From Escherichia coli (GTDB taxonomy: Bacteria > Pseudomonadota > Gammaproteobacteria > Enterobacterales > Enterobacteriaceae), in NCBI RefSeq assembly GCF_017348835.2, contig NZ_CP072317.1: DNA of 64,000 nt. The stretch is one strand, 5' to 3'. Below are positions 47,250 through 47,560 of the stretch, piece by piece. A model generated the notes under the pieces. It was not told where the DNA came from and ran no database searches. It worked only from the letters and a program-made list of their open reading frames with translations. The position numbers and the translations under genes are program-made. Every line of letters starts with the position of its first letter. Positions within the stretch are counted from its first letter, which is position 1.

Positions 47250-47560
47250 TACAGAGGGCACCGGGAGGGCACCCCTGTGGTGCCCGTTCCCCGCTGCCTG
47301 TGGGCTGTTCACCGCGTCCGGTAACGGGTCAGGCCGACCGTGGAATACCGCAGCCGTCGTCTTTTTGACGGCGAGGATATGCCGCGAAAGCGGCTTGAAG
47401 GGCGTTCATCAGAAAAGGGCGACGGGCTGGCGTACACTGTCACCAACGCCAGCCGGGAGCGGTAAAAGCGCCCGTCCCGTGCCCGGCCGGACGCGGGACA
47501 CTGACCACAGGCAGCGTTCCTGCCGCGCCGCGTCAGCCGGCGCAGTAAAAAGAGGAGCCC
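47250..47560 (+). promoter_or_regulatory. long imperfect hairpin 5' of the methyltransferase operon (candidate ssDNA promoter)
   Basis: Arms CGCTGCCTGTGGGCTGTTCACCGCGTCCGG and reverse complement of about 47500-47550, central palindrome near 47400; shares GTGGGCTGTTCA with the Frpo-like repeats. Confidence 0.4.

Follow-up and report, generated by a model that had tools for sequence, protein, structure and literature searches.

A probable class 3 single-stranded DNA promoter hairpin ahead of the M.EcoGIX-type methylase operon in an R100-type IncFII plasmid

The leading region and its methylase-linked hairpin

The window, by which we mean the whole 64,000-nucleotide stretch of DNA analysed here, is 100% identical to the IncFII plasmid pCTXM3_020032 over positions 30000-50000 and 100% identical to R100 over 47200-47600; judged by these sequence matches, it is an R100-type IncFII plasmid. 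The nic site lies on the + strand and the leading-region genes to its right are all on the - strand, so the + strand is both the transferred strand (T-strand) and the template for those genes (Table 1). Rfam matches above the gathering score were FinP with the traJ 5' UTR (30899-31008), sok (35003-35179) and the AS-pc01 antisense RNA of pHK01 (42509-42610).

At the oriT-distal end of the leading module, just before parC/parM, the T-strand carries a long hairpin that, as had been claimed for it, heads a methylase operon of four ORFs, which directly adjoin it on the - strand. The first gene encodes a 227-aa DNA methylase that is 92% identical to M.EcoGIX of pESBL and 98% identical to the F protein, and it matches the NCBIfam family NF010253 with 499 bits. 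The gene order of the operon is identical in F and pESBL.

The long imperfect hairpin first noticed at 47250-47560 is clearly present. Its main arms, 47292-47321 (CGCTGCCTGTGGGCTGTTCACCGCGTCCGG) and 47487-47516, are 83% complementary, and the 331-nt hairpin region folded as single-stranded DNA (ssDNA) gave -96.6 kcal/mol (z = -6.1), a stability equalled by none of 100 shuffles; the cut-off of a published screen for such hairpins is -75 kcal/mol per 300 nt. Covariation agrees with this large, stable stem-loop. The small central palindrome expected near 47400 was found at 47381-47394, with the sequence GCCGC-GAAA-GCGGC.

Table 1. Positions of leading-region features and of elements within the class 3 hairpin; promoter elements are predictions of the model discussed in the text.
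Feature	Position	Strand	Remarks
traM	31099-31482		
nic site, TGT/GGTGCTTT	31804-31814	+	
Class 1 copies in leading region	33948-34400, 39424-39878, 42730-43183		
Class 2 (ssp2-type) hairpin	44635-45051		5' of klcA/ardB-like gene (44209-44634, -); DNA fold z = -6.8
Fourth operon ORF, 275 aa (annotated as 258 aa)	45052-45879	-	
Third operon ORF, DUF1380, 144 aa	45879-46313	-	
Second operon ORF, 73 aa	46327-46548	-	
First operon gene, DNA methylase, 227 aa, M.EcoGIX ortholog	46549-47232	-	ATG at 47232
Whole hairpin, probable class 3 (ssp3-type) ssDNA promoter	47233-47576	+	Transferred strand; DNA fold z = -6.1; 96-98% identity to F/pESBL
Complement of Shine-Dalgarno region	47240-47252	+	Closes hairpin base; pairs with 47545-47557
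Small hairpin GGGCACC-CCTGT-GGTGCCC in predicted 5' UTR	47267-47285	+	Compensatory changes in 4/7 pairs
P1 5' arm (template arm)	47292-47328	+	Pairs with 47476-47516; pair probability ~1.0 outside bubble; compensatory changes
Predicted transcription start (+/- 3 nt)	47299	-	7 nt after T47502: A47509, paired with T47299
12-mer GTGGGCTGTTCA	47300-47311	+	Template strand -1 to -12 in the model; TGTTCA part gives mismatches facing -10-like box
P2 branch	47329-47398	+	RNAalifold consensus; basal helix TCAGGCCG/CGGCTTGA
P2 inner helices CGTGG/CCGCG and ATA-CC/GG-A-TAT	within 47329-47398	+	P2 terminal hairpin 47353-47372
Central palindrome GCCGCGAAAGCGGC, in P2	47381-47394	+	
TTGA, first four bases of putative composite -35 (TTGA/CC)	47395-47398	+	Paired with TCAG 47329-47332
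P3 branch	47399-47475	+	Closed by GGGCG 47400-47404 / CGCCC 47469-47473; between putative -35 halves
CC, last two bases of putative composite -35	47476-47477	+	Would be brought beside TTGA by the junction
P1 3' arm (non-template arm)	47476-47516	+	Pairs with 47292-47328
Putative -10-like GACACT, 3' arm	47497-47502	+	A47498 faces C47310, T47502 faces T47306
3'-flank motif GAGGAGC-N3-GCGACATC	47552-47569	+	GCGACATC invariant in 16/16 homologs, just outside 3' base

Relation to the known class 3 promoter

Hairpins of this type have recently been described on conjugative plasmids. Wen et al. (NAR 2025, PMC12672017) report that donor elimination, RNA-seq of transconjugants and 5'RACE on pESBL revealed six induced leading-region operons with a hairpin at the head of each, and sort the hairpins into class 1 (Frpo and ssi1-3), class 2 (5' of klcA and ardA) and class 3 (5' of M.EcoGIX). 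According to the same paper, the class 3 start site mapped by 5'RACE lies inside the hairpin, classes 2 and 3 are conserved in F, and the matching F operons are also induced. The pESBL/F class 3 element thus known gives early transcription in transconjugants and is silent after the complementary strand is made. A 2026 preprint (10.64898/2026.01.09.698686) names the elements ssp1a/b, ssp2 and ssp3 and, in F, employs ssp3 as a functional ssDNA promoter. A Frpo-type promoter before ecoGIXM had already been assumed by Fomenkov et al. (2020), and another preprint examined the region upstream of this F gene cluster and did not find a promoter there.

The hairpin of the window is 96% identical over 341 nt to its counterpart in pESBL-EA11 and 97% identical to that in F, and homology with both stops at about 47572, after which the flanks diverge. 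It shares with P(M.EcoGIX) of pESBL and ssp3 of F the transferred strand, the oriT-distal leading-region position directly 5' of an M.EcoGIX-family methylase, the downstream operon and the predicted fold, and differs only in the host replicon (IncFII/R100 type, followed here by parC/parMR) and a few substitutions. We conclude that the region is very probably the class 3 ssDNA promoter in its IncFII/R100 version, the counterpart of pESBL P(M.EcoGIX) and F ssp3; homology is what suggests an ssDNA promoter function for the copy on this plasmid. The original prediction of a T-strand hairpin of the ssDNA-promoter kind, like Frpo, is upheld to this extent, as the pESBL and F orthologs drive zygotic induction; its further proposal of a sub-motif shared with Frpo fared worse (see below). 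The element itself is already known, though only since late 2025, and the copy in the window adds nothing new in principle. It occurs at 95% identity or more in at least 5000 plasmid records.

With promoters of this kind a conjugative plasmid can produce anti-restriction functions while it is still single-stranded, the function here being a single-strand-specific methylase of broad specificity, and these promoters are one reason why F, R100 and I1-type resistance plasmids establish well in new hosts. Plasmid establishment may become easier to dissect or block with the help of the conserved junction, the mismatch-encoded boxes and the Burkholderiales homologs described below.

Instead of driving expression, a large T-strand hairpin could serve mainly in second-strand synthesis, where it would be a priming site (ssi) or a roadblock to replication. 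Frpo transcripts are primers for DNA synthesis both in vitro and in vivo, ssp2 is a roadblock resolved by UvrD, and the P3 loop and interior blocks of the class 3 hairpin are conserved beyond what simple pairing would need, all of which is consistent with such a role. The preprint that put ssp3 in place of ssp2 in F, however, describes ssp3 as equal to ssp2 in promoter strength and free of roadblock activity (10.64898/2026.01.09.698686), and PMC12672017 reports that the methylase operon is induced in transconjugants. We consider it unlikely that second-strand synthesis is the main task of the hairpin; priming may be a secondary role next to that of an ssDNA promoter.

Conserved fold and a candidate promoter architecture

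We compared the class 3 hairpin across 22 homologs, including Achromobacter, Bordetella and Paraburkholderia, whose methylase loci (59-67% protein identity) carry a class 3-type element. The enteric and beta-proteobacterial elements share GGTCA(A/G)G, GTGGAATA, TATGCCGCGAAAGC and CTTGAA in the same order. In the consensus fold of 16 enteric homologs 98.3% of cells were paired and 14 pairs had changed on both sides; a 13-sequence alignment of enteric and beta-proteobacterial elements gave 96.3% paired cells and 20 doubly changed pairs, the counts for the P2 basal helix being partly inflated by a one-base register shift in that alignment. None of 500 shuffles reached these double-change counts, and slid controls gave 1-5.

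This conservation supports a three-way junction of P1, P2 and P3 as the class 3 fold, with junction assignments taken from the pair tables of minimum free energy (MFE) folds. The P2 basal helix reads GCCG/CGGC in enterics and GGG/CCC in beta-proteobacteria, and the P3 insert is 67-74 nt long in enterics (77 nt counted for P3 of the window) and 44-49 nt in beta-proteobacteria. The DNA MFE alone yields the junction in six homologs, from Hafnia, Achromobacter, Bordetella and Paraburkholderia. For the window the MFE interior is different: constraining the fold to a junction with the P2 basal helix and 47324-28/47476-80 costs 1.8 kcal/mol relative to the MFE, and this helix reaches a probability of about 0.2 in the ensemble.

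In 16/16 homologs the T-strand was more stable than the complementary strand, with a mean difference of 5.2 kcal/mol, which speaks for a structure of the transferred DNA strand rather than of the mRNA. The same comparison bears on the idea that the hairpin acts as a long mRNA leader or riboregulator transcribed from a duplex promoter further upstream. The small hairpin at 47267-47285, which covaries and would be part of the transcript, fits such a leader. Against it, we found no sigma-70-like promoter upstream on the - strand, the flank varies between plasmids, with parC in this one and different DNA in F and pESBL, and an Rfam search of the hairpin, even at permissive thresholds, gave no match inside it. 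A role in mRNA is, in our estimate, extremely unlikely.

RefSeq annotates a hypothetical protein, WP_032146011.1, at 47309-47602 on the - strand, with likewise annotated ORFs in F and pESBL, and if the region were coding the inverted repeat would be incidental. The product is Arg-rich and of low complexity, however, the longest stop-free frame varies in both length and frame among diverged homologs, and a 1-nt indel between pESBL and the window falls inside the ORF. Substitutions track base pairing and not codons, and no duplex promoter was found for it. A coding explanation of the repeat is hardly credible, and WP_032146011.1 and the equivalent calls in F and pESBL are probably spurious.

If the region is instead a class 3 promoter, the question is where polymerase would find its boxes. 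Consensus promoter/terminator and position-weight scans, which read sequence and not activity, detected no convincing linear sigma-70 promoter on either duplex strand. Three conserved features of the folded T-strand suggest a different arrangement. First, CTTGAAG is invariant in enteric and beta-proteobacterial homologs. Second, the 3' arm carries a -10-like hexamer that is (G/C)A(C/G)ACT in 16/16 enteric homologs, and the A.C and T.T mismatches at this hexamer are kept in enterics while the flanking pairs covary. Third, all five beta-proteobacterial homologs have TTGA/CC-17 nt-GA(C/T)(T/G)GT with A2 unpaired. In six methylase loci of Achromobacter, Bordetella and Paraburkholderia, a recognisable junction hairpin of class 3 type with TTGA/CC-17 nt-GAnnGT is present at about 2270-2460 on the - strand.

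Based on these features, we propose a model in which P2 stacked on P1 would set TTGA beside CC, so that the 3' arm would carry a -35-like TTGACC. GACACT would follow some 17 helical positions further along, and its A (-11) and T (-7) would face the conserved mismatches, leaving the -10 effectively pre-melted. Host sigma-70 RNA polymerase would then initiate near T47299 and continue along the 5' arm into the methylase gene, and the RNA would begin with A and have a 67-nt 5' UTR with the covarying small hairpin and a Shine-Dalgarno sequence. The equivalent predicted starts are at about NC_018659.1:54,715 in pESBL, where the ATG is at 54,782, and about NC_002483.1:54,099 in F. The 12-mer at 47300-47311 would be the part of the template arm that faces the -10 and the discriminator. 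After second-strand synthesis the gene-proximal duplex would be CTGACC-15 nt-TGAACA, lacking a usable -10, and the 3'-arm boxes would lie 200 bp away with their -35 split by the 77-nt P3 insert. A promoter whose duplex form has no usable boxes would switch itself off, which would explain activity on ssDNA only.

According to this model class 3 would be a sigma-70 promoter that a three-way junction of DNA assembles: TTGACC would exist only when P3 (44-77 nt) loops out, the 3' arm alone would carry the -10 (xAnnnT), facing mismatches or G.T pairs, and second-strand synthesis would erase both, in an arrangement conserved from Enterobacterales to Achromobacter, Bordetella and Paraburkholderia. We put this forward tentatively, at somewhat less than even chances, and the boxes and start site we infer may differ from those published by Wen et al.

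Several observations weigh against the model. The boxes are weak, with the -10 matching at 3/6 positions and an enteric non-template spacer, on the 3' arm, of 18-19 nt (19 in the window; 18 in pESBL and two other homologs); on the 5' arm the spacing is 15 nt. We know of no precedent for a -35 interrupted by a junction. The P3 terminal hairpin (47426-47453) has a loop that starts with a -10-like (T)ACACT at 47433-38, is invariant as TAnAnT in 16/16 homologs and has related loops in the beta-proteobacterial homologs, and its TACACT looks like a better -10 than GACACT. As a possible part of the junction model, the P3 loop might provide an extra contact for polymerase or a host factor. We rejected TACACT as the working -10 on geometric grounds: it is located where stem meets loop in a small hairpin, the loop closing after another 7 nt, and the gap between it and the invariant TTGAAG ranges from 13 to 32 nt across the homologs.

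Comparison with class 1 and class 2 hairpins

Class 1 comprises Frpo and ssi1-3, also named ssp1a/b (Masai & Arai 1997; Couturier et al. 2023, PMC9849209). Like class 3, Frpo forms a long hairpin on the T-strand and serves host RNA polymerase as a promoter only in the single-stranded state. Class 1 is an unbranched long hairpin with an A/T-rich apex, whereas the interior of class 3 is G+C-rich and branched, and class 3 shares no homology with class 1, the class of Frpo/ssiD and of ColIb ssi1-3, beyond an isolated 13-mer. The window contains three class 1 copies. The first two, at 33936-34424 and 39407-39900, are direct repeats 5.5 kb apart with 99-100% identity and bracket hok/sok, psiA/psiB, a 473-aa ORF (37106-38527) and ssb; the third (42746-43183) is 89% identical. 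GCAGTA-type repeat runs with a 12-nt period follow at 40006-40107 (~130-230 nt past the 3' end of the second copy) and at 43340-43399 (~160-220 nt past that of the third).

The original prediction had pointed to a 12-mer at 47300-47311 that recurs in the Frpo-like copies, and the recurrence is real: GTGGGCTGTTCA also occurs at 34149, 39625 and 42931, on the + strand each time, and the match extends to the 13-mer TGTGGGCTGTTCA. A module with a function in both class 1 and class 3, such as a site on ssDNA contacted by RNA polymerase, SSB or another host factor, could explain why the three class 1 copies and the class 3 hairpin have an exact 13-mer in the same strand, the more so as the TGTTCA part lies in a mismatched or bulged stretch in both classes. 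In 20,000 dinucleotide shuffles a 12-mer was shared with a class 1 copy in 3.8% and a 13-mer in 1.0%; against any other hairpin the values were 8.9% and 2.6%. However, the three Frpo-like copies are one repeat family, so sharing the 13-mer counts as a single independent coincidence and not as three. With a chance expectation of 1-4%, the shared word is marginal as evidence of a relation. The likeness also ends at 13 bases: local alignment of class 3 with class 1 did not extend past them, and its score was equalled by 13/300 shuffles. Five unrelated places in the window also have 12-mers in common with the class 3 hairpin.

The placement and conservation of the word likewise argue against a common module. 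In class 1 it belongs to the 3' arm, where it follows just after the A/T-rich apical stem at 14 nt from the apex loop, and is non-template; in class 3 it belongs to the 5' arm and is template. In diverged class 3 homologs of 75-81% identity (from Citrobacter, Erwinia, Edwardsiella, Raoultella, Hafnia and others) its place is taken by CGGAGCCTGTACG, with the 3'-arm partner changed from GACCACA to GGCTCCG to compensate, which indicates that the pairing is selected and the word is not. On the class 1 side, the original Frpo (F Frpo1/ssiD) has GCGGGATGTGCA at this place, the IncI ssi copies (ColIb/pESBL) have GTGGCCGGTGCA, GTGGACGGTATA or GTGGCTGGTACA, and diverged class 1 copies lack the segment. 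Together these results make a shared module very unlikely; the 13-mer identity with the Frpo repeats is most likely a coincidence, as far as sequence comparison can tell, and the idea of a sub-motif shared with Frpo is not supported. The original prediction had named two outcomes that would speak against it, a chance match of the 12-mer and a region inactive as a promoter on ssDNA. Chance is now the best reading of the former, whereas the latter runs counter to the promoter activity documented for the ortholog.

Two other candidate functions of the 13-mer were judged by eye and rejected. As a relaxase site (nic-like GTGGGnTGT) it is not conserved across plasmids with different relaxases, and as a CRP site its spacing is not correct.

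Class 2, or ssp2, also called 'Frpo3', lies 5' of klcA/ardB and ardA. It resembles class 3 in having -35- and -10-like boxes on the 3' arm, a mismatch bubble at the -10 and GGAGC...GCGACATC at the 3' base, and differs from it in sequence, in an unsplit -35 and in a replication roadblock that is reportedly absent from ssp3. The boxes of class 2 hairpins read TTGCAT-15 nt-TAnnnT, with a 3-nt bubble at positions 2-4. In the class 2 copy of the window they read TTGCAT-15 nt-TACGAT with the hexamer fully paired; the middle three bases are mismatched in F, pESBL and one methylase-linked class 2-like hairpin. Aligning class 3 with the hairpins upstream of klcA and ardA joined only a 29-nt 3'-flank motif, the arms being unrelated. 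A related flank motif, GCGGAGCC..GGCGAC(T/A)TC, occurs at the class 2 3' base (~44970-44998), including the published Frpo' 4 and Frpo* 3 candidates. In the Frpo list of Samuel et al. (supplementary file 4), we recognised class 1 and class 2-like elements and none of class 3 by reading the listed sequences, a comparison made by eye and not by similarity search.

In ten of the methylase loci that we collected, the gene is headed by a class 2-like hairpin instead (~2080-2500, - strand). They are plasmids or contigs filed under Klebsiella, Yersinia, Lelliottia, Pantoea, Enterobacter, Cedecea and Salmonella arizonae, with one (L015) filed as Streptomyces morookaense, and promoter types thus appear to have been swapped between lineages. 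Five enterobacterial contigs with methylase and hairpin, L015 among them, are filed under Collinsella, Oscillibacter, Oscillospiraceae and Streptomyces morookaense, and probably reflect contamination or mis-binning.
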